Source of the DNA: a virus
Taxonomy: Duplodnaviria > Heunggongvirae > Uroviricota > Caudoviricetes
Direction: 5' to 3' (one strand)
DNA length: 64,000 bases
Virus record (IMG/VR): IMGVR_UViG_3300006139_000503
The translations under genes were made by a program, and so were the position numbers. Positions 1-63,439 of the stretch are shown one piece after another; within the stretch, counting starts at the first letter, position 1; every line of letters begins with the position of its first letter. The notes beneath the pieces are model-generated. The model did no database searches, had not been told where the DNA came from, and worked only from the letters and a program-made list of their open reading frames with translations.

Positions 1-136
1 GCGGTTGACTGGAAGTATGTGTTATCTGCTTCTGTACTGGCTGGCGTAGTGTCGATGCTTACATCGGTAGCGGGGCTTCCGGAGCTGGAAGAGTAGGGAC
101 GGGAATTTCACATCCGGGAAAGCAGCAAAAAGCATA

Positions 137-165
137 TTGCAAACGTGAAATGCATATGCTATAAT
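137..165 (+). promoter_or_regulatory. Near-consensus sigma-A promoter TTGCAA-17-TATAAT driving a convergent antisense RNA
   Basis: TTGCAA at 137-142, a 17-nt spacer, TATAAT at 160-165. It points toward the 3' end of the minus-strand peptide gene. The conserved box gcatatgcTATAATgccaataggcaaaa recurs, inverted, next to the other two peptide copies. Confidence 0.5.
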
Positions 166-171
166 GCCAAT

Positions 172-250
172 AGGCAAAAGGAAATGACAGTAATCTGTCA
201 TGGATACACAAAGCAAAAACCCCGGAAAGGCACTTCCGGGGTTTTCTTTA
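172..250 (+). ncRNA. Candidate antisense sRNA (putative RNA antitoxin) ending at bidirectional terminator
   Basis: Predicted TSS about 7 nt after TATAAT. Internal hairpin tgacag-taatc-tgtca. It ends at the terminator aaaaaccccggaaaggcacttccggggttttcttt (218-250), which also terminates the convergent peptide mRNA. Confidence 0.35.
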
Positions 251-277
251 TCCCTTTACGGAGGGACAAGACCGAGG

Positions 278-376
278 TTAGTTGTCATTATTACCGTTGT
301 CTAACCATTTGATAATGTAGTGGCAGGCTACATTAACCATGACAGCGGATAAAAAGGAAATAACAAACTCTGTCAA
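278..376 (-). CDS. 32-aa hydrophobic toxin-like peptide (Fst/type I toxin-like), family copy 1, TTG start
   Basis: (M)TEFVISFLSAVMVNVACHYIIKWLDNGNNDN. A TM-like N-terminus is followed by a KW and acidic/polar tail. An SD aaggggg lies about 8 nt upstream. It shares the CHYIIKWLD core with the copies at 33738 and 34260. Confidence 0.45.
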   Translation of the reverse strand: MTEFVISFLSAVMVNVACHYIIKWLDNGNNDN

Positions 377-423
377 TGGACACACCCCCTTTCCGTTGCC
401 GGATTGGGTATGACAACGGAAAC

Positions 424-453
424 AGTATAGCATAAATGTATATGATACGACAA
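424..453 (-). promoter_or_regulatory. Promoter of peptide copy 1 (TTGTCG-18-TGcTATACT, extended -10)
   Basis: On the minus strand: -35 TTGTCG (448-453), extended -10 TGCTATACT (424-432). A 5'UTR hairpin ccgttg...caacgg lies just upstream of the SD. Confidence 0.4.
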
Positions 454-534
454 GAGTATCTGCAAAACAGCACCGCTCAGAAATGGGCGGTGTTTTTTTA
501 GTGCTGCAAAAATGCAGCAAGAAGGGAGAATCGT

Positions 535-3369: not shown

Positions 3370-5082
3370 TTAGCAAAGTGCTTCCTTTTTCCCAAATCGT
3401 ACCTCACAGTCTTTCCGGAAAAACGACACCCCATAACAGTCTATGTTCCGATACCCCTCTGTGCGAAGCTCTTCCCTATATCTTTTTTCATATATCTGCT
3501 GCAATGCCTTTTCTGCATCGCTCTCCAAATCATCAATAGAATCTGATACCTTGACTTCCAGAACAAATGACCTGCCCCGCAAAGAAGGGCTTCTCACCAT
3601 AATATCAGACCTCCCGTACCCCGATTCCCGGTTGGATTTAACCAGATAATTTTCACTCTGACTTAAAATGCCAGTAAGAAATCCATGATAAAAATTTTCT
3701 GCGCTATCGTAAAAGCTAATGGTATAAGCAAGCTGCTCAGTCAGTATATTTGTCATCCTCTTCGCATTTCCATCTTCCAGTGCCTGGTACAAATCATGAA
3801 AGTTTTGTTTCTTTATTGTATTCTTAAACCAATTAAGAATCGTGTTCTGATAGACCGTCTTCACTTCTATATTCGGAATTCGTGCCCGTAAAAAAACTGA
3901 TGTCTCTTCGAAATATTCGCTTTCCTTCGTCAGATACCCCGTAAAGTAAAGAAAATTCCACAAATTCTCATCACTGCTGTACATGTCCCCATAAGTGACT
4001 TCCTCATGAACCTGGATATCAAGAGTCTTTCCGCTCAAGAGCGCTTCAATCTGCCCCTTCGTTTCCCTATCAGCCTTGGCTATCATATCTTTAATAATAT
4101 CATTTGAACTGGTATTAATCCAATATGGACGCGGAAATGCGTTGACGTCCGAATATAAATCATATAAAAACTTAATAACACTCCACGGGTTGTAAACCTC
4201 TGTATCTCCAAATAAATATCCGTCATACCATTCTTTCATTGTCGAAAAGCGGCTTTCTACTTCATAATAGGACATCATTTGGCTCACTTCTGATTCTGTA
4301 AATCCAAAATGCTCACTGTACTTTTTATCAAGCACAGAAATAATGTTCAGATGATTCAACCCGGTAAATATACTCTCTTTTGAAATCCTCAGGCACCCAG
4401 TAATAACCGCAAACTGCAAATACTGATTTGTCTTTAAGGCAGCTTCAAACAACGAACGGATAAAGCTGACCATCTTTTCATAAAAGCCTCTAAAATATGC
4501 ATTTTCTAATGGCACGTCGTACTCGTCAATTAGAATAACTGTATTCTTGCCAGTAATTTTGTACATACATTGGCAGAAAAGCCGCAAAGAATTTCTTATT
4601 GCTTTTTCCTCACCCTGCCCCTCCGCAATATCAGTATACTCTTTATATTCTTTGTTGGATAGACATTCTTTCCCGACTTCTATAATGCTCCTGTGCCTTT
4701 CAAACTCCGTGCTAACTGCATTTTGTATCATGTAATAAGCCATATCGTAGTTTTCCTGTTTCGCCGATTTCAAAGTCAGCTCAAACACAGAATACATTCC
4801 CATCTGGTTTGTGTAGCTTTCCCCGGCTTCCATAATCTTCATCCCCTGAAAAAGTTCTCTATTTTGCTCATTTCTTTTTTCGTTCCCGGTATCCTCAAAA
4901 AAATATCGGAGCATACTCATATTTAATGTTTTTCCAAAACGTCTTGGACGTGTAAATAGGTTCACTTCCCCTTTCAAATCAAGTAATTCCTTAATCAGCA
5001 TAGTCTTATCGACATAACAATAGCCATCTCTTATTATCTTCTCGAAATTGTCAACACCTACCGGCAATGGCTTCCTCATCAT
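3370..5082 (-). CDS. AAA-ATPase-like / PD-(D/E)XK (DUF1703, PDDEXK_9) family protein
   Basis: The N-terminal region [13 protein letters not shown]...[21 protein letters not shown] is the hallmark of the predicted AAA-ATPase-like family with a C-terminal PD-(D/E)XK module. 570 aa. Confidence 0.75.
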
Positions 5083-5151
5083 CCTACCTCCATTTCATAC
5101 CGTTTTCTATACCACATCCTACATCTCTTCGTTTTGCAAATGCGCTTGTTT

Positions 5152-6855
5152 CTATACAGCCTCATACTGACCGCCCCCAATCAATACCTGTTTCCCTTGG
5201 AACGCAAACCCATACTTCCGAATTTTCTCTTTAGGGATTCCCTTCTCTATCAACGATACCTCATACTGTTTCCTGTCTATCTGTTTTAAAGCTTCCTGCA
5301 CAGTATCAGAAAGTTCCTTCTCATCCTCTGAATCCCGCACCTTAAACTCCAGAATGATTGCATCATCGCCTTTTTCCCTAGGCTCCAGCATCACATCATA
5401 CCGTCCGAAACCACTTTCACGGTTCGAAGTCAGGATATATCGGTCAGTCAAATCCACCATCAACCCTAGGACAAAACCATGATAGAAACGCTCAGGCTCT
5501 TCCTCTGAGGGCTTTTTCCCAGTATCAAAATAACTAAACGTTGCCAATGCTACTTTGTTCATATATACATTCATTGCCTTCAAATCATTTACTAAAAGTG
5601 CATTAATGAAATCATTGTAACTATCACTGTATTCTGTAAACCAGTCTTGAATCATCCCTTCAAACATAATCTTCACTTCTTTATTTGTTAATGCTAGATA
5701 ATAATAAACCCTCCCTGTGCGCTCTACAAATTCCGTCCTAACCGCTTTCAGATAGCCGCTTGCCAGCAGGAGGCTCCAGATAGTACTTTCTTTTCCTGTA
5801 AGCTGGTCATATAGAATTTGTTCGTCTATCTGCGCCTTTAGGATTCCCCCTTGCAACATCCGTTCAAATTCCTGCTTTACTTTTTTATTCCCCTCACGCA
5901 AAAGCTTCCCGGCCAGACTGTTAGAACTGGTATTTGCCCAGTATGGCCGAAATTGTCTCGTATCCAGCAAATTGATAATAGACCACGGATTGTAAATGTC
6001 TGTCAGACTGCCAAAAGTAAACCCGTCATACCAGCTTTTTACATCCTGTTTCTTATTCGACAAACCATATTCATCCAGTGCCGCAAATACTTCCTCCTCT
6101 GTAAATCCGAAACTGTCTACATATTCCTCCGAAGTGGTAGTCACCACTTTCAGGTTATTTAAGTCAGAAAAGATTGACTCTTTACTAACTCTTGTTATCC
6201 CCGTCATCACTGCACGTTCCAAGTATGGGTTCGTCTTAAATGTAGAATTAAACAAACTCCTTGTAAACTCGGCAAGCTCGTTCCAATACCCATTCACATA
6301 GGCTTCCTGCATAGGCGTATCATACTCGTCTAAAAGAATAATCACTTTCTCCCCGTAATAGCGGTACAGATAATCAGAAAGCATTTTTAAAGAAAGAGTC
6401 GCCATATAATCTTCCATCTCAGCAGAAATTCTGCAGAAATCTTCTTTTTCTCTGCTGTTGAGCATATCTCCCTCAAGCAAAAAATCAAACTTGTTATATA
6501 ATAACTGGATAATCTTACAAATCTTTTTCCGCGCTCCCAAAAATGTTGTTTCCTTCACATCAGAAAAACTAAGTGCTATAACTGGATACTTCCCCTGCAA
6601 TTCCCTGTACTTCCCCTCTTGCCATATAAACAGCCCCTCAAACAAGTCACCCCGGCCTACATATTTTACAGAAAAGAATTGTTCCAACATGCTCATATTC
6701 AATGTCTTCCCAAATCTTCTCGGTCGGGTAATTAGAGTTACACTATCCCCTCTTTCCCACCATTCATGAATGAATGCTGTTTTATCTACATAAAAATAAT
6801 TTTCTTTCCGAATCGTCTCAAAATCCTGATGTCCTATTCCTACTGTCCTTAGCAT
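5152..6855 (-). CDS. AAA-ATPase-like / PD-(D/E)XK (DUF1703) paralog
   Basis: Same family signature (FYVDKTAFIHEWW...[21 protein letters not shown]). The likely start is the internal ATG (MLRTVGIG) with AGAGGTGG 5 nt upstream. It lies in tandem with the paralog at 3370..5082. Confidence 0.7.
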   Translation of the reverse strand: MLRTVGIGHQDFETIRKENYFYVDKTAFIHEWWERGDSVTLITRPRRFGKTLNMSMLEQFFSVKYVGRGDLFEGLFIWQEGKYRELQGKYPVIALSFSDVKETTFLGARKKICKIIQLLYNKFDFLLEGDMLNSREKEDFCRISAEMEDYMATLSLKMLSDYLYRYYGEKVIILLDEYDTPMQEAYVNGYWNELAEFTRSLFNSTFKTNPYLERAVMTGITRVSKESIFSDLNNLKVVTTTSEEYVDSFGFTEEEVFAALDEYGLSNKKQDVKSWYDGFTFGSLTDIYNPWSIINLLDTRQFRPYWANTSSNSLAGKLLREGNKKVKQEFERMLQGGILKAQIDEQILYDQLTGKESTIWSLLLASGYLKAVRTEFVERTGRVYYYLALTNKEVKIMFEGMIQDWFTEYSDSYNDFINALLVNDLKAMNVYMNKVALATFSYFDTGKKPSEEEPERFYHGFVLGLMVDLTDRYILTSNRESGFGRYDVMLEPREKGDDAIILEFKVRDSEDEKELSDTVQEALKQIDRKQYEVSLIEKGIPKEKIRKYGFAFQGKQVLIGGGQYEAV

Positions 6856-6974
6856 ATAAACCACCTCTTTCCCTGCTCCTTTAAAACTTATACCCATTTT
6901 ACAGTATCCCCAAACAAAATGCAATTAGATAAAGCCCTGAGGATTTTCCGCCTCAGAGCTTATATATTTACTGC

Positions 6975-8552
6975 CTATTTGATTCTCCATATTAACCGTT
7001 CTATTTTGTTACTCCTGTATGTACAGGAGTCACTAATCAGAACGTTCTTGCTCAGCCCTAAGTCGCCTAACACCCGCATATAAATATCAATATTCCCTTC
7101 CTTATCCACTTCTATCTTTTGAATAATCTGCTTTAGCTGTTCATTAGTCATATCACGGACTGAAGTAATATCTTCCATATTTTTAAACGTTTTCTGTATA
7201 ATGTTCTCCAACTGGCTGCCCTTGTCCAGATTGTGCTCCACTAGCTTCAAGTCATTTTCCAGCCGCTCTATCTCTTTTTTCGTCCCGCCAATTCTCTTAT
7301 TCAGCTCTTCACGGCTAATCAGGTCATCCATATACATATCCATATACTTCTGGCGGGTTTTCCTCAACTTCGTCAGGCTATCCTCTAACTCTTTTCTGTA
7401 GTTTACATTTTCATCCTTCTCTTTATAAATTTTTGAAAACTCCTTCACCAAATACTCGGTAACTTTCTTCTTCGATTTCAGCATTTGGGCGAAGTAGCAC
7501 TCCAGCTCCAGAATCAACTCCTCTTCATCCAGCGTTACAGCATTTGGACAGCTATCTACCCCCTTACCATTACGCCCGGAACATACCCAGCGGACATAGG
7601 TATTTTTATATGTACGAGCTGTTCGCCGGAATGACCATCCGCATTCCTTACATTTAATTAATGTACTAAATAGGTATTTATTGCTCTGCCTCTCCCTATT
7701 CATACGGAAAGCCCTATGCCTGCCCGTTAAAATTTCCTGCGCTTTGTCAAACTGTTCTTGTTGGATAATGCACAAATCCGGCCTGTCTGTCACCAGCCAC
7801 TCTGCCTCATCCTTATCCTTTCTTTCTCCTGTTAGAAAATCTGCCACTTCCTGCTTCCCATTGATGATTTTCCCTGTATAAAGCTCGTTTGTCAAAATCC
7901 TACATATGGCGTTCTGGCTCCAGCGGCTATTCCGCTTTGTCCTAGACCCTCTTTCATTTAACATGCTTGCAATTTTTGACGCGCCATAACCGCCTTCCGT
8001 ATACCAGTCGTAAATCTGGTGGATAATCCTTTCCTCTTCTTTGTTGATTTTCATGTCGAAATATTCTCCGGAAATTTTATCATAGCCGTAGACAATATTC
8101 GGGACTCTGCCTTTTTCCGCATTCATTTTCTTTCCAAACTTAATACGCTTTGAAGTATTTGCGCTTTCCTCCTGCGCCAGCGCCCCAAAAATAGTCAGAA
8201 CAAACTCCGACTGCCCTAACACGGTCATATTGGCTGTAAGAAACGTCATCTCAATCCCCAATGCCTTTAATGTACGGACGCTCTGTAGCAAATCCACCGT
8301 GTTTCGTGCAAATCTGGAGATATCCTTGACTACTACCATATCAAACATGCCACGCTTCGAGTCCTCCATGAGCTGTTGGAATTCTTTTCGATTCTTGATT
8401 TTTGTACCGGAAATCCCTTCATCCGCATATACTCTTACGAGCTTGTGGCCATTTTTTTCTGTATACTCCTGGAAAAATTTCTTCTGCGTTTCAAGGCTGT
8501 TTATCTGGTCACTTTTATCCGTAGACACCCTACAGTAAGCAGCTATATTCAT
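6975..8552 (-). CDS. Large serine recombinase (phage integrase/resolvase family)
   Basis: N-terminal resolvase catalytic domain (AAYCRVSTDKSDQ...SLETQ...YADEGISG...DMVVVKDISRFARN). A long C-terminal recombinase/zinc-ribbon/coiled-coil extension follows. 525 aa. Confidence 0.85.
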   Translation of the reverse strand: MNIAAYCRVSTDKSDQINSLETQKKFFQEYTEKNGHKLVRVYADEGISGTKIKNRKEFQQLMEDSKRGMFDMVVVKDISRFARNTVDLLQSVRTLKALGIEMTFLTANMTVLGQSEFVLTIFGALAQEESANTSKRIKFGKKMNAEKGRVPNIVYGYDKISGEYFDMKINKEEERIIHQIYDWYTEGGYGASKIASMLNERGSRTKRNSRWSQNAICRILTNELYTGKIINGKQEVADFLTGERKDKDEAEWLVTDRPDLCIIQQEQFDKAQEILTGRHRAFRMNRERQSNKYLFSTLIKCKECGWSFRRTARTYKNTYVRWVCSGRNGKGVDSCPNAVTLDEEELILELECYFAQMLKSKKKVTEYLVKEFSKIYKEKDENVNYRKELEDSLTKLRKTRQKYMDMYMDDLISREELNKRIGGTKKEIERLENDLKLVEHNLDKGSQLENIIQKTFKNMEDITSVRDMTNEQLKQIIQKIEVDKEGNIDIYMRVLGDLGLSKNVLISDSCTYRSNKIERLIWRIK

Positions 8553-32275: not shown

Positions 32276-33442
32276 TTATCTACACAAAGCACTTACACAT
32301 CTAGCGATTATTTCCGCACTTTGTATCACCTCCTCTACTGTATTCATTGCTGAAAATGACACCCTGACCGAACTCCTCGCCTTTTCCGGCGTGACTCCCA
32401 TTGCCAAAAGCACATGGCTCGGCTCAGACTCATGGCTTCTGCACGCAGACCCGGCCGAAACGCAGACACCGCTTGCATCAAGCATAAGCAGCAACGTTTC
32501 CCCATCTATGCCTTCAAAGCACAGATTAAGCACTTTCGCGCTTCCCCCTGGATATGCGCCATTAACAGACATCATATTATCCATCCCAGATTTACGAAGT
32601 TCCTTTGTCAATTGACTGTAAAACAGGCTTCTCAGACTGGATATCGCTTCCAGGTTTTCTTTAGCGTATTTCTTCTGGAGTTCGCAGGCTTTCCCAAACC
32701 CTACAATCCCGGCCACGTTTTCAGTGCCGCCACGTAATCCATATTCCTGCTCTCCCCCTCCGCAAATCAAAGGAGTAAGCACGCTATTATCCCTCACATA
32801 CAAAGCCCCTGCTCCTTTTGCCCCATGTATCTTATGGGATGACAGCGACAGAAAGTCACATTGGATATCATCTACATTTATCTCCTGGCATCCGGCGGCT
32901 TGTACGCAGTCCGTGTGGAACAAGATTCCCCGCTCCCCGCACATCTTCCCTATCTCCCGCACAGGGTTCACAGCACCAGTCTCGTTATTCACATACATTA
33001 CCGATACAAATCCAACCTCCTTGTTGTCAATTATCTTCTGGAGTTCCTGTGTTTTGACTACACAATTCCCATTAACTCCTAAAGTATGTATGCAAAAATC
33101 TCCCTCCGCTTTTTCCAACGACTTTGCCGCTTTTAACACGGAGTCGTGTTCCACAGCAGACACTACGACATGCTTCTTCCCTATTGCTTTCAAATAAGGG
33201 GCAGCGCCCTTTAAAGCCGTATTGTTTGCTTCGCTGCCGCCGGATGTGAAAATAATTTGCTCTGGCATCGCACCGATGAAATCAGCCACCTGCTGTCGGG
33301 CGTTCATTACAGCGTCCGCCGCATTCCTGCCAAGCCCATAGATTGTCCCGGCGTTGCCATATTCCTCTGTTAAATACGGCATCATTGCTTCCAGGACTTC
33401 TGGATAGATTTTAGTGGTTGCTGCATTATCTAAGTAAATCAC
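32276..33442 (-). CDS. Cysteine desulfurase (NifS/IscS family, PLP-dependent)
   Basis: N-terminus MIYLDNAATTKIYPEVLEAMMPYLTEEYGN. The PLP-lysine region SLSSHKIHGAKG is recognisable. The active-site Cys region (SAGSACRSHESEPSHVL) is present. 388 aa. Confidence 0.85.
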   Translation of the reverse strand: MIYLDNAATTKIYPEVLEAMMPYLTEEYGNAGTIYGLGRNAADAVMNARQQVADFIGAMPEQIIFTSGGSEANNTALKGAAPYLKAIGKKHVVVSAVEHDSVLKAAKSLEKAEGDFCIHTLGVNGNCVVKTQELQKIIDNKEVGFVSVMYVNNETGAVNPVREIGKMCGERGILFHTDCVQAAGCQEINVDDIQCDFLSLSSHKIHGAKGAGALYVRDNSVLTPLICGGGEQEYGLRGGTENVAGIVGFGKACELQKKYAKENLEAISSLRSLFYSQLTKELRKSGMDNMMSVNGAYPGGSAKVLNLCFEGIDGETLLLMLDASGVCVSAGSACRSHESEPSHVLLAMGVTPEKARSSVRVSFSAMNTVEEVIQSAEIIARCVSALCR

Positions 33443-33737
33443 ATTAACTCCTCCTCGTTTTTTCTTGAATTCGTGCCTCGGCAGTTTCTTGAAAAATAAA
33501 AATGCCTGAGCGTGTAAACTCAGGCTAAACTTTTCCTATTTGTGTAAACAAAAATTATGAGTATTAACTGCACGAGAATCGCTTTGTGGCAATGTCCACT
33601 GAAATAGCGGGTGTCGGGTTATGTCAATTGCAATCCCCGTTACAAGCGATTTTGGAAAAAGATAGCAAGTCACCAAATAATATGTTATAATTTCCCTGTT
33701 GCTCACCGATACCCGGCAACAGGGAGGAGGTGTTCAC

Positions 33738-33836
33738 ATGGAGTTCTTTGCATCTTTTTTAATCGCTGTCGCGGCTGGTGTAACTTGCCACTGCATCATC
33801 AAATGGTTAGACGGAGACGACAGGAGCAACAAATAA
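33738..33836 (+). CDS. 32-aa hydrophobic toxin-like peptide, family copy 2
   Basis: MEFFASFLIAVAAGVTCHCIIKWLDGDDRSNK. GGAGG lies 8 nt upstream. Preceded by the conserved 5'UTR hairpin gttgctcaccgatacccggcaac and an extended -10 promoter (TGtTATAAT at 33683-33691). Not in the ORF track (below 60 aa). Confidence 0.45.
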   Translation: MEFFASFLIAVAAGVTCHCIIKWLDGDDRSNK

Positions 33837-33868
33837 CCTAGTGGGTGCTTTGCCACTATAAAAGAAAA

Positions 33869-33983
33869 GAAGAATCCCCGAACTGTGGTGCAACACGGTT
33901 CGGGGATTCGTTCTTTGTTCACATGGAACTTTTGCATCTTTTTTGCCTATTGGCATTATAGCATATGCAAAAACTTTTTTCAA
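33869..33983 (-). ncRNA. Candidate convergent antisense sRNA locus for peptide copy 2 (promoter TTGAAA-17-TATAAT on minus strand plus shared terminator)
   Basis: On the minus strand: TTGAAA (33978-33983), a 17-nt spacer, TATAAT (33955-33960). The transcript would run into the bidirectional terminator gaatccccgaac...gttcggggattc (33869-33916). Confidence 0.35.
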
Positions 33984-34259
33984 TATACTTTTGGCAATGT
34001 GAACTACCCACGAGCTAAAGCTCGGTGGGTTTCCTGCTTCATCGACCTCGTAACCTACTATAAGGATATCGTTACACAAAAATTGATTATTTGAGATGTC
34101 CACAGAGATAGTGTCCTATAGAGATAGCGAGCATCGGATTCTTGTAGCCATAATCCCCTCTACATTTTTTCGTATGAATTAATTATAGAAGTTTGTCGGA
34201 TAATATGTTATAATTTTTTCGTTGCTCACCGATACCCGCAACGGGGAGGAGGTGCTTGC

Positions 34260-34358
34260 ATGGAATTTTTTATCTCTTTTTTAGTTACCGTTTTGGGAGG
34301 TGTAGCCTGCCACTACATCATCAAATGGTTAGACGGTGACGGCAAAAGCAACAAATAG
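34260..34358 (+). CDS. 32-aa hydrophobic toxin-like peptide, family copy 3
   Basis: MEFFISFLVTVLGGVACHYIIKWLDGDGKSNK. Same SD, 5'UTR hairpin (gttgctcaccgatacccgcaac) and extended -10 promoter as copy 2. Confidence 0.45.
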   Translation: MEFFISFLVTVLGGVACHYIIKWLDGDGKSNK

Positions 34359-34391
34359 CCTAGTGGGTGCTTTGCCACTATAAAAGAAAAG

Positions 34392-34507
34392 AAGAATCCT
34401 CAGACGGTACTGCCATACCAATCTGGGGATTCGTTTCTTTTGCCCACATGGACTTTTTATCTCTTTTTGCCTATTGGCATTATAGCATATGTGAAAACCT
34501 TTTTCAA
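34392..34507 (-). ncRNA. Candidate convergent antisense sRNA locus for peptide copy 3
   Basis: On the minus strand: TTGAAA (34502-34507), a 17-nt spacer, TATAAT (34479-34484). It reads into the terminator hairpin at about 34392-34438. Confidence 0.35.
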
Positions 34508-34535
34508 TATGCCCTTATCAAAAAATTATCCTTAT

Positions 34536-34672
34536 CAAATTGACCCTCTCACGACTGAAGTCGTAAGATTCCTGCTTCATCGACTTCGTAACCTCCATCT
34601 CCACAGGCGTAACTTTCCGTCATTCCAACGGTAGATATATTTTTTAGACTGATGACAACCTCAATCCTTCAT
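34536..34672. repeat. ~137-bp structured repeat, copy A (second copy at 51963-52100, ~90% identity)
   Basis: Shared sequence caaattga(a/c)cctctcacga.tgaagtcgt.agattcctgcttcatcgacttcgtaacctccatctccacaggcgtaactttccgtc.ttccaacggtagatatat...ctgatgacaacctcaatccttcat. It contains mutually exclusive hairpins (ctcacga..tcgtgag versus gaagtcg..cgacttc). Confidence 0.6.
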
Positions 34673-34810: not shown

Positions 34811-35170
34811 CTAAAAGACTATTTTATCTTTAATCTTCTGACGTTGTTGCTCGGTTAATATTGAATTTTCGACTAATGAATAGTTATCATGTAGCCATTC
34901 ATTAGTTTTTCTTCTGAAATACTCCGCTGGTTGTACTATTTGTGCTGTTCTGAAATCGAGTTTTCCCTGCGTAAAATCACTGCTCATAAATCTATTTGCT
35001 CCATCACCAGTTATCAATAGCTGGTCAATTAAGACTTTTTCATTAACTCCGTCCTGAACAAGTACATGCTCGATATTATTGATATAGGTTAGCAGACTTT
35101 CAAATGAAAGACACAGAATTAGTCTGCCATATCCTTCGCCACTAGTTTTGATAATAGTATATTCATTCAT
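34811..35170 (-). CDS. Hypothetical protein
   Basis: Start chosen at the internal ATG (MNEYTIIKTSGEGYG) with AGAGGAGAG upstream. 119 aa. It is divergent from the small-peptide promoter at 35250. Confidence 0.35.
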   Translation of the reverse strand: MNEYTIIKTSGEGYGRLILCLSFESLLTYINNIEHVLVQDGVNEKVLIDQLLITGDGANRFMSSDFTQGKLDFRTAQIVQPAEYFRRKTNEWLHDNYSLVENSILTEQQRQKIKDKIVF

Positions 35171-35249
35171 GACAGACTCTCCTCTCTTATCTACTTTACT
35201 GTTCCGAACCAATTAGAGCTAGACATTTTTTGTTCCTTCAAATAATAAA

Positions 35250-36375: not shown

Positions 36376-37191
36376 CTACCCTGTCTGGCTTTCTACTTCT
36401 ACGATACTGCTATCCATGAGATAATTCCTGCGCATCCCACCTAAATTCAGATTCCGGTAGGCTTCCTCAATCTCTTCCGACGTAATTCCGATATAATCCA
36501 ATGTCTGCGCAGGCGATGAGTGGTTCAGCATTTTCTGGAGCAGAAGCAGCTTCCTGCTGTCATTATGGGACATCAGCATCTGGTGGTAGCAAAATGTCTT
36601 CCGCAGCGTATGTGTTGACACCTTTACGTTCAAGCTTAAATCCTTCGCAATTCCCTTTAAAATCCGGTCAATTGACTGAACAGAAAGCGGGGTGTTCGTG
36701 TTCCCGCCGCGATTTGACTCGCTTCGGAACATATAATCACTTAACGCTACCCCCGGCGTATTCTTCAAATACAAAGTGACCGCTTCTATTACCGCCGTGT
36801 TGATGGTAATATACCGGTTCTTCTTTCTTTTTCTTGTGTTCCTTGTTTTCTTTTCAAATACCGGGAAACTGTCGCGGTATGTGAAGTTTTCGTTTATCAA
36901 ATTGGAAAAACGCAACATCCTCAAATCGCTCACCCGTAGCCCAAAGTTAATTCCGACGATAAACAGCATGTTATCCCTATATCTCCCATTTTGGATAAGA
37001 AACTCTGACACTGTATAGATATCATCCAGGTTCTTAATCGGCTCTGCCGCATGTTCTGGTGCCAGCTCGCAACGGACTTCTTCTGTCGCCGGGGCAATAA
37101 GGCCTGCGGCAGACTGGGCACTGCCCTTCTGCAGTGCCTGCACATCAATTGTCTTTGCCTTAATATCCCCTATGCTTATTATTTTCCCCAT
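36376..37191 (-). CDS. Tyrosine recombinase / phage integrase family protein
   Basis: C-terminal catalytic region has HTLRKTFCYHQ (R, H-x-x-R) and LNHSSPAQTLDYIGI (nucleophilic Tyr context). 271 aa. Confidence 0.75.
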   Translation of the reverse strand: MGKIISIGDIKAKTIDVQALQKGSAQSAAGLIAPATEEVRCELAPEHAAEPIKNLDDIYTVSEFLIQNGRYRDNMLFIVGINFGLRVSDLRMLRFSNLINENFTYRDSFPVFEKKTRNTRKRKKNRYITINTAVIEAVTLYLKNTPGVALSDYMFRSESNRGGNTNTPLSVQSIDRILKGIAKDLSLNVKVSTHTLRKTFCYHQMLMSHNDSRKLLLLQKMLNHSSPAQTLDYIGITSEEIEEAYRNLNLGGMRRNYLMDSSIVEVESQTG

Positions 37192-51859: not shown

Positions 51860-51962
51860 ATCTACCTTTCCCCTTGTATTATTTTCATTTTTCGTTAATT
51901 CCCCAGTCTGGGCACCATGTCTGCATGACCTGCCAGTTTCTTACCCTGAATCAAATTTTCCG

Positions 51963-52100
51963 CAAATTGAACCTCTCACGAATGAAGTCGTGAGATTCCT
52001 GCTTCATCGACTTCGTAACCTCCATCTCCACAGGCGTAACTTTCCGTCGTTCCAACGGTAGATATATCTTTTTAGGCTGATGACAACCTCAATCCTTCAT
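51963..52100. repeat. ~137-bp structured repeat, copy B (see 34536-34672)
   Basis: Located just upstream (in gene orientation) of the antirepressor gene starting at 51859. Confidence 0.6.
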
Positions 52101-55910: not shown

Positions 55911-56482
55911 CTGTTCACTTTCCTCCGGCTCCTATCCCAGCCATCTCCAAATTCCATGCACTCGTATGGGTATTCTTTGTAGAATTCCTCACCGTACTGG
56001 ATGAAAAAAAAAACGGGGTGCTGCCAAGTTTCACCCACCTAAAAGAACAAGCGGGCTAGTTGCCTAACCCGCTTGCCACTGTGCTACAAGCTCCTATGCA
56101 TTCTATTATGTTCAGCATGGCTCGCTGTTCCATGCTGCCTCCAAAGAGATTTCTGTAAGTTTCCCTACAGTACAGACTATATCATCGCCCTTTTTCTCAG
56201 GGTGTCTACCACTTCGGACACCGACCGCTTGCGCCCTACTCCCTTACGGGATAGTCGTTGAACGTTCTCCTGTTCGGAGCTTCGCTGCTGATTGCCCATT
56301 GCAAAAGCGTTTAGGATTTAACCTTGCGCCATCTCGCAATTTCTTTCTACTTTCGTTACCGTCACGCTTAGATTTCTTTCATTCTTACGTTGTGGTATTG
56401 CGAGCTTTAGGGGTTCCCAGCAATTCGATAGATTTGCATGTGAAATTACTCTCACATGGGACTATTTAGCATTGCCTGCTAG

Positions 56483-62970: not shown

Positions 62971-63439
62971 ATCGTTTTCTCCTTTCGGCTATTTATTTTT
63001 ATGGATAAGCCCATAACAGAACACCCGAAACGATGCCGCGTAGCCAGATTCATAACTAAAGTCTCGGATGCTCTATATATGCTCATCAACCGCCCCGGAG
63101 GGCGGCTGTCTCAATATTCTATTGTCTTCCCTTTACTCTGTCTTTTCAGACGTCCAGAAACAATCCGGCATTTAATTCCTCGGAACATAGCCGATGTGCC
63201 CTCGGGCACTGATATCGTTGCGTTGGACGCCCTCGAAGATTTTCAAGGTGAAGTCCCTCATGGTGACGCATTCAGGCAGATGCGACCTCTTTTCACATCT
63301 AATTGGGTGTAACTCTGGGGGTTTTCACTATCCGAACCATAGGCTTACTTCCTACGCACCCAGCGACGCATCTGGTAGCAGATGTACTCTCACAGGCGGA
63401 TAACCGCTCGTGCACTGATTACTCAGAGCGATAGTATCT

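Follow-up and report, generated by a model that had tools for sequence, protein, structure and literature searches.

The par locus and its toxin Fst are a textbook type I toxin-antitoxin (TA) module, reported almost entirely from Bacilli. Par-type loci bring together convergent promoters, the direct repeats DRa and DRb, a bidirectional terminator and a 5' stem-loop over the ribosome-binding site (Weaver 2020, PMC7472228). In the Fst/RNA II and SprA1 families the antisense RNA lies off the toxin open reading frame (ORF) and pairs with its target outside the region of overlap (T1TAdb paper, PMC8594479). The hallmark of Fst/Ldr toxins is a conserved tryptophan between a hydrophobic transmembrane (TM) helix and a charged C-terminus; most members also carry a P/D/S/T-XXX-G(C) motif in the TM segment (PMC7472228; Fozo 2010 for the tryptophan). 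For Clostridia, the literature offers solely 'Fst-like' peptides predicted in silico, in the two Lachnospiraceae C. bolteae and C. asparagiforme (PMC2887945, PMC6563280). Here we analyse a 64,000-nucleotide (nt) stretch of a Caudoviricetes virus (IMG/VR record IMGVR_UViG_3300006139_000503), called the window below, in which positions 137-453 very probably form a par/Fst-type type I TA cassette with a putative toxin and its predicted transcripts.

The cassette occurs three times in the window, and we refer to 137-453 as copy 1. Its ~213-nt mRNA would encode a 32-residue, single-helix membrane peptide homologous to Fst toxins. A first-pass annotation made from the sequence alone had proposed an Fst-like type I toxin here, controlled by a convergent antisense RNA as in par; the layout of the locus, the homology of the peptide and the co-evolution of the two RNAs all support that proposal.

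Relatives were gathered by pattern-based locus searches, followed by tblastn and ORF extension for the peptides. The pattern search returned 96 confirmed relatives in viral contigs and at least 533 in contigs of a one-genome-per-species set. Among the 80 matches listed in species-representative genomes nearly all belong to Lachnospiraceae, e.g. Dorea, Blautia, Roseburia, Mediterraneibacter, Acetatifactor and metagenome-assembled genomes. Architecture was counted over 148 unique loci, residues over 107 distinct peptides, folds over 111 untranslated regions (UTRs) and start codons over 179 family ORFs. For the pairing analysis, 127 distinct combinations of an initiation region with its own antisense 5' end were compared by RNAduplex, with 40 random partners per locus. 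A megablast of the first 12 kb of the window against phage records returned nothing relevant, and literature searches on the peptide motif and on SpF66 gave nothing usable.

The antisense RNA opens with ~39 nt (172-210) that repeat, directly and in diverged form, the toxin initiation region (347-386): on the plus strand, 176-209 and 352-385 share 83% identity. With the two RNAs convergent, the repeat gives the antisense RNA a 5' end that is complementary to the mRNA around the start codon, which is the DRa/DRb principle of par. In copy 1, antisense nt 1-39 and mRNA positions -10 to +29 form a predicted duplex of -43.1 kcal/mol. Over the 127 pairs, cognate duplexes average -37.6 kcal/mol (standard deviation 6.1) against -19.9 (standard deviation 5.8) for non-cognate ones; the cognate partner beats all 40 random partners in 97 cases, and in 121 no more than two of them outdo it. 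In a smaller set the values were -38.9 for cognate, -20.2 for non-cognate and -15.1 kcal/mol for shuffled antisense sequences. Where the codons at the N-terminus of the peptide vary, the antisense RNA tracks them. Of the in-silico evidence that the small RNA would regulate the toxin, we take this co-evolving pairing to be the strongest. The first-pass annotation had described sense and antisense RNAs that overlap at their 3' ends: the overlap at the terminator stands, while the main functional complementarity, which had gone unnoticed, is predicted to lie outside it.

The same analysis separates the three copies. Copies 2 and 3 have cognate duplexes of -37.3 and -34.6 kcal/mol, respectively; cross-pairing of copy 1 with either gives -11 to -18 kcal/mol, and that between copies 2 and 3 gives -26 to -28. 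Copy 1 is thus predicted to be orthogonal to copies 2 and 3, and these two to be partly cross-complementary.

The regulatory elements (Table 1) keep to fixed positions across the family. On its own the promoter scan is weak evidence for them: it reports seven promoter-like sites in 1.6 kb, where 2.8 are expected. They go beyond chance because they are conserved across the 148 loci, and it is this conservation that we consider decisive. In 138 loci the -10 element of the toxin promoter is preceded by a TG, and in 137 its distance to the start codon is 45-48 nt. In the antisense promoter, the most conserved DNA of the family, the -10 is TATAAT in 132 loci and carries the TG in 142, and the -35 is TTGCAA or TTGAAA at a spacing of 17. 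Mean matches to consensus are higher for the antisense than for the toxin promoter, both at the -35 (4.1/6 vs 3.4/6) and at the -10 (5.9/6 vs 5.5/6).

A terminator was found in 148/148 relatives. In copy 1, the scan places a 14-pair hairpin at 246-215 on the minus strand, and the plus-strand RNA folds the same hairpin, followed by the U-tract UUUUCUUU. The transcription start of the toxin mRNA, near 417, was set 7 nt past the -10. The predicted mRNA folds with z = -3.6 relative to shuffles; the predicted antisense RNA overlaps no part of the ORF and has a fold z of -5.2. Throughout the family the antisense RNA, with a median predicted length of 74 nt, has zero overlap with the ORF, and a gap of 33 nt (median; minimum 4 nt) separates it from the toxin stop codon. 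The two convergent promoters and the shared rho-independent terminator of the first-pass annotation were recovered at the positions it gave, the former by the scan and by their fixed positions, the latter as a hairpin in both strands. The minus-strand ORF, with its TTG start and Shine-Dalgarno (SD) sequence, was likewise present as described.

Table 1. Positions of the TA cassettes and their predicted parts in the window.
Feature	Position	Strand	Description
Copy 1 cassette	137-453	toxin unit -, antisense unit +	
Toxin mRNA promoter	424-453	-	-35 TTGTCG 453-448, 18-nt spacer, extended -10 TGcTATACT 432-424; promoter scan
Antitoxin RNA promoter	137-165	+	TTGCAA, 17-nt spacer, TGcTATAAT; promoter scan
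Bidirectional intrinsic terminator	215-250	both	GC-rich stem of 12-14 bp, A-tract on one side, T-tract on the other
Predicted toxin mRNA (RNA I equivalent)	205-417	-	~213 nt, from the inferred transcription start to the U-tract after the terminator
Predicted antisense RNA (RNA II equivalent)	172-256	+	~85 nt; 5' targeting region 172-210, then terminator hairpin
Toxin ORF	278-376, stop included	-	32 amino acids, TTG start, MTEFVISFLSAVMVNVACHYIIKWLDNGNNDN
Translation-initiation region targeted by the antisense RNA	347-386	-	mRNA -10 to +29; RNAduplex
5' UTR fold	381-417	-	anti-SD CATACCC 412-406 with GGGTGTG 387-381; minimum free energy folds, both of UTRs and of the complete mRNA of copy 1
Copy 2 module	33683-33983	+	toxin -10 33686-33691; ORF 33738-33836 (MEFFASFLIAVAAGVTCHCIIKWLDGDDRSNK)
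Copy 2 terminator	~33866-33916		
Copy 2 antisense RNA	33948 to ~33863	-	promoter 33983-33955
Copy 3 module	34206-34507	+	toxin -10 34209-34214; ORF 34260-34358 (MEFFISFLVTVLGGVACHYIIKWLDGDGKSNK)
Copy 3 terminator	~34388-34441		
Copy 3 antisense RNA	34472 to ~34388	-	

The peptide of copy 1 consists of a single hydrophobic span followed by K-W-L-D and an acidic/Asn tail. Its SD sequence, AAAGGGGGTG, lies at 392-383, 8 nt 5' of the TTG; close relatives (locus L004 of our survey) have ATG at the equivalent codon. Family peptides are 27-34 residues long, with the consensus M-E-x-h-I-S-F-L-V-A-V-A-A-G-V-A-C-H-Y-I-I-K-W-L-D-(G/S)-D. All 107 distinct peptides, the three window copies included, keep K-W-L unchanged, and their tails contain on average 2.5 acidic and 1.2 basic residues: the tryptophan hallmark of Fst/Ldr toxins is present. 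A glycine is conserved in 99 peptides, and the residue four positions before it is mostly A (82 peptides), otherwise T (19) or S (5). Start codons are ATG in 105 ORFs, TTG in 40 and GTG in 34.

Codon statistics leave a clear mark of selection on this ORF. The three codon positions have entropies of 0.60, 0.26 and 0.81 bits, and single-nucleotide codon differences comprise 12470 synonymous vs 7103 non-synonymous changes, which clearly points to purifying selection and hence to a coding sequence. Longer readings were rejected. The 87-aa extension and the 64-aa ORF, both held to be artefacts in the first-pass annotation, show no conservation, with upstream in-frame stops 1-34 codons before the start. 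A downstream stop-free stretch (median 63 codons) is spread over four frames, none of which stays open by itself.

Profile comparison connects the peptides to Fst. Aligned by hhalign with six PGAP-annotated Fst toxins, including the pAD1-type and one staphylococcal member, the family profile reached 96.0% (E 3.7e-9, 31 columns), with the glycine and W-L-D in register; this bears out the Fst-like peptide architecture recognised at first pass. A peptide encoded on a plasmid of Megamonas funiformis, annotated 'type I toxin-antitoxin system Fst family toxin', passes NF033608 with 29.2 bits (cutoff 26) and aligns with the family profile at 97.9% (E 4.5e-13). PF13940 (Ldr_toxin) is touched by 1/34 family members, at E 0.0086.

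For the RNAs, Rfam models were assigned to par parts by their matches to annotated Fst loci: RF02844 (RefA9) matches par RNA II, RF02848 (RefB11) par RNA I, and RF01797 (fstAT) the staphylococcal antitoxin. The antisense RNA of copy 1 scores 23 bits with RF02844, below the threshold of 49; neither RF02844 nor RF02848 appears in the Rfam match lists of copies 2 and 3. RF02442 (SpF66_sRNA) matches the toxin-mRNA strand of an E. faecium relative with 59.7 bits (threshold 42) and that of Megamonas with 37.1, just below; the window copies score 17.8-20.5 bits, end to end and on the correct strand, again below 42. Such sub-threshold matches are consistent with the Fst assignment and are not counted as membership. 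Low-scoring matches to His_leader, rnk, ohsC, CopA and MicC over 204-324 were discarded as terminator look-alikes. As a side result from the plasmid loci L169-L174, L161 and L162, several Rfam families labelled merely as small RNAs emerge as parts of Fst-type TA loci: besides RF02844 and RF02848, RF02442, whose label names only a Streptococcus small RNA and not a toxin mRNA, corresponds to the toxin mRNA of a sister clade with HY(I/F)CKWLD peptides.

A canonical par locus (L169) has the same order and spacing of parts as the window cassettes, as the par-like layout of the first-pass annotation implied. Par of E. faecalis plasmid pAD1 and the window cassettes both run from an extended -10 promoter through an anti-SD 5' stem-loop (a likely one in the window copies), an SD, a start codon that need not be ATG and a TM peptide of ~30 residues to a spacer of ~40 nt, the bidirectional terminator, a direct repeat of the initiation region and the convergent antisense promoter. 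In par the anti-SD hairpin reads CGCCTC/GAGGTG, and the initiation-region repeat also sits between terminator and antisense -10. The peptides share (K/R)WLD and an acidic tail, and the antisense RNA stays off the ORF in both. Unlike Fst, the window clade has no proline in the motif, and copy 1 has no glycine either; a conserved C-H-Y precedes IIKW. The 5' UTR is 7-10 nt longer than in par and contains an inner GNRA hairpin, and in place of the two short repeats DRa and DRb there is one block of ~35-40 nt with small internal loops. The window copies fall below the RF02848/RF02844 thresholds. Hosts differ as well: the clade is found in Clostridia (Lachnospiraceae), in prophages and on small plasmids, par on enterococcal pheromone plasmids.

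The nearest relatives found are the 'HY(I/F)CKWLD' peptides of Megamonas, Enterococcus faecium/hirae, Mogibacterium and rumen plasmids. The plasmid loci of Megamonas, E. faecium and Mogibacterium share with the window copies the UTR (GTTG..GGCAAC..GGAGGTG), the repeat and the antisense promoter. Their peptides have (A/G/V)-His-Tyr-(I/F)-Cys where those of the window have Cys-His-Tyr-Ile-Ile, and the window peptides lie outside NF033608, just as the window copies stay below the RF02442 threshold. SprA1/SprA1AS of Staphylococcus aureus also encodes an Fst-family peptide, PepA1, with equal G-to-W spacing and a Cys near the Gly; its antisense RNA is 3'-located, and the functional pairing takes place at the initiation region, outside the overlap (PMC7472228, PMC8594479). 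It differs from the window copies in its basic tail, its PXXXGC motif and an antitoxin that matches RF01797, a model without a match in the window. Type I modules are also known from prophages of another Clostridia host: those of Clostridioides difficile, for example CD0956.2/RCd10, have been proposed to stabilise prophages (PMC6563280). The C. difficile toxins are unlike ours, with 34-59 residues and lysine-rich tails, and no relationship was detected: three relatives match NF047374 at 15-17 bits (cutoff 60), the window peptides not at all.

The 5' UTR probably adds a second layer of control. In the modelled fold, a C-rich anti-SD close to the 5' end pairs with the SD and spacer, and the resulting helix encloses the hairpin TCCG-GCAA-CGGA (403-392), which has a GCAA tetraloop. 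Anti-SD and SD co-vary by subfamily (CCCC with GGGGG, CCTCC with GGAGG, CTCCC with GGGAG), and 69 of the 111 UTRs have a hairpin that combines a GNRA loop with a compensating stem (CCG/CGG, CTG/CAG). SD sequestration by the anti-SD is likely. A simple GTTGYC...GRCAAC hairpin was also considered; thermodynamic folds and SD/anti-SD co-variation favour the nested helix around the GNRA hairpin. Of the hairpin that the first-pass annotation had drawn upstream of the SD, the existence of a structure is retained, and its form is better given as this nested fold around a small GCAA hairpin.

Several observations weigh against reading the cassette as an Fst-type system. The window peptides and the family consensus match no family at E <= 10 in Pfam or NCBIfam, the Fst and Ldr models and NF033608 included, and no PHROG or PADLOC model. 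Fst requires the proline of its PXXXG motif for toxicity (PMC7472228), and proline never occupies the position four residues before the glycine (0/107 peptides); nor does the family conform to the wider P/D/S/T-XXX-G(C) motif. Copies 2 and 3 have AXXXG and TXXXG, respectively, and copy 1 has A at -4 and an asparagine, N15, at the place of the conserved glycine, so that its toxin could be attenuated. The terminator loops of copy 1, UGCC in the mRNA and AGGCAC in the antisense RNA, contain no YUNR U-turn on inspection. Terminator loop sequences vary widely across the family, and the U-turn is a trait of the pAD1 mechanism rather than of the whole family. Finally, the SD pairs upstream with a probability of 0.74 vs 0.55 when the 5' part is shuffled, a genuine difference, though modest and in part compositional, and RNAalifold gave no consensus on the raw MAFFT alignment of the UTRs, where the subfamilies are out of register, so that no covariation is claimed from it.

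Copy 1 stands between the C-terminus of a holin (1-96), whose full-length homologue in L001 matches phrog_443, and an Amidase_2 endolysin (535-1404). A second plus-strand intrinsic terminator is found at 469-494, past the cassette and ahead of the endolysin gene, which starts at 535; two plus-strand terminators and the opposing toxin gene therefore stand between holin and endolysin. Further on, a gene with a SocA/Panacea antitoxin domain is followed by a 150-residue ORF without a Pfam match, possibly its toxin partner. Two paralogous genes, each of the type AAA-ATPase_like + PDDEXK_9, and then a large serine recombinase come next, the latter probably the prophage integrase; this stretch takes in 1972-2862 on the plus strand and 3370-6924 and 6975-8552 on the minus strand. 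These surroundings form a prophage's accessory end. Elsewhere in the window, both on the minus strand, lie a group I catalytic intron (RF00028; 82.5 bits, full model) at 56153-56477 and a RAGATH-16 RNA (RF03047; 75.1 bits, gathering score 65.6) at 63313-63384.

Copies 2 and 3 were found by searching the window with the region and the peptide. They form a tandem with a 522-nt period, have ~66% DNA identity to copy 1 and share its architecture; the exact peptide of copy 3 is a called gene on 14 metagenome contigs. The pair lies between an aminotransferase gene (32276-33442) on one side and, on the other, an RnlB-antitoxin-domain gene (34811-35212, minus strand) and a tyrosine integrase (36376-37191, minus strand), which suggests a second integrated element or a defence islet beside the aminotransferase. 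More than one copy was counted in 14 related loci. In many relatives two cassettes lie within a few hundred bases (L009, L034, L042, L044, L046, L054, L074, L138, L147, L159), and in some pairs one peptide has CHYIIKWLD and the other, more divergent, (S/G)YYICKWLDR. The window also contains a ~120-nt repeat in three copies (33990-34120, 34528-34658, 51955-52085) with the core TTCCTGCTTCATCGAC(C/T)TCGTAACCT; its minus strand gives RAGATH-18-like matches of 20-27 bits, below the threshold of 44.9. Although two of these repeats trail TA copies 2 and 3, we place the repeat outside the TA module because it is absent from 163/163 related loci.

Elsewhere the context changes. Homologues of the window neighbours (holin, amidase, recombinases, RnlB) are almost entirely missing from related loci. 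In eight diverse viral loci the gene beside the cassette is an endolysin (3), a holin (1), a large terminase (2), a repressor (1) or a replication initiator (1). Among the 53 viral contigs of at least 20 kb (L001-L080), 26 have the cassette within 1.5 kb of an end, where 4.8 are expected; the bias reflects either a location at the end of the phage genome or conserved multi-copy segments that break assemblies. Tblastn located relatives on plasmids of 2.4-7.3 kb from Mogibacterium neglectum, Waltera intestinalis and uncultured bacteria, the cassette adjoining the rep gene on the 4.5-kb plasmid of M. neglectum; further plasmid relatives come from E. faecium, E. hirae and M. funiformis. Near-identical versions of copy 1 occur in a viral contig (L001) and in an isolate genome (L081), that of Lachnospiraceae bacterium 46-15, with 91% identity. 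Public records leave the clade peptides unnamed or 'hypothetical', except for one 'toxin' in a phage third-party annotation record.

It is rather improbable that the peptide is an antisense-regulated small membrane protein with a phage job, such as holin-like lysis timing, superinfection exclusion or abortive infection. The position of copy 1 next to the holin and amidase endolysin speaks for such a role, as do the lysis genes adjoining the cassette in 4/8 sampled viral loci, the excess at contig ends and the other defence or TA genes close by (SocA/Panacea, RnlB). However, the cassette also lives on small plasmids, one of which, when examined, had it next to rep with no annotated lysis gene; it sits beside terminase, repressor and replication genes, and in tandem near an integrated element and a housekeeping aminotransferase. 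No neighbour is conserved, PADLOC returns no match, and the post-lysis site is a general hot spot for morons, hence no pointer to a lysis role. A related idea, still unlikely, is that the proline-less Cys-His-Tyr clade is a distinct Fst offshoot at the lysis end of Lachnospiraceae temperate phages and acts in phage biology. If so, it would serve e.g. in the timing of lysis, in superinfection exclusion or in abortive infection instead of plain addiction, and its toxicity determinants would be unlike those of Fst, with e.g. Cys-mediated oligomerisation replacing the PXXXG kink.

Two other explanations deny a TA function altogether. The ORF could be a product of chance inside two paired non-coding RNAs, or else copy 1 could be a decayed, non-toxic relic, as its TTG start and N15 in place of glycine might hint. 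Both are very improbable: the family is under clear coding selection, TTG and GTG starts are common in it (74/179), copy 1 keeps its SD and both promoters intact together with the strongest cognate duplex of the three copies, and its near-identical versions persist in L001 and L081. A secreted bacteriocin-like or signalling peptide with an incidental convergent RNA is more improbable still. The product is small, hydrophobic and cationic/acidic, which is all that the locus itself offers for this idea, and PepA1-type relatives can lyse cells from outside (PMC7472228). The peptide has neither a leader nor a double-glycine motif, though, and co-evolution of the antisense RNA with the initiation region is the signature of a type I antitoxin. 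An exporter or immunity context, named at first pass as the sign of a bacteriocin, was looked for, and no exporter, immunity or modification gene was seen in the window or in the sampled loci.

We now propose how the par/Fst-type cassette would work. By analogy with par, the small RNA would be in excess because its promoter is nearer to consensus. It would pair with the mRNA first, or additionally, through the terminator overlap, and then cover the start codon and part of the SD, so that translation is blocked. The 5' anti-SD:SD fold would act as a second brake, delaying translation of free mRNA like the 5' stem-loop of par RNA I. Should the element be lost or antisense transcription fall, the labile RNA would decay and the peptide would be made; inserted into the membrane, it would damage it, and growth would stop or the cell die. 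As par does for pAD1, the system would promote the stable maintenance of its carrier, which is the prophage for copy 1 and the integrated element for copies 2 and 3. Its occurrence on small plasmids, in one case next to the rep gene, and near phage genome ends agrees with an autonomous cassette for addiction or stabilisation that comes to lie at moron sites.

This kind of system is well known, and the cassette appears genuine but ordinary: the general understanding of type I TA systems is unchanged. What is new is a large, unannotated, proline-less Fst clade that is very common among gut Lachnospiraceae, their phages and small plasmids and is predicted to have the full RNA architecture. Because it is repeated, the cassette may cause assemblies to break at the ends of phage contigs, and the clade offers a ready set of naturally orthogonal pairs of antisense RNA and target. 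Altogether, the finding closes a gap in the annotation of gut commensals and the phages they carry, as Pfam, NCBIfam, PHROGs and PADLOC all miss the clade.

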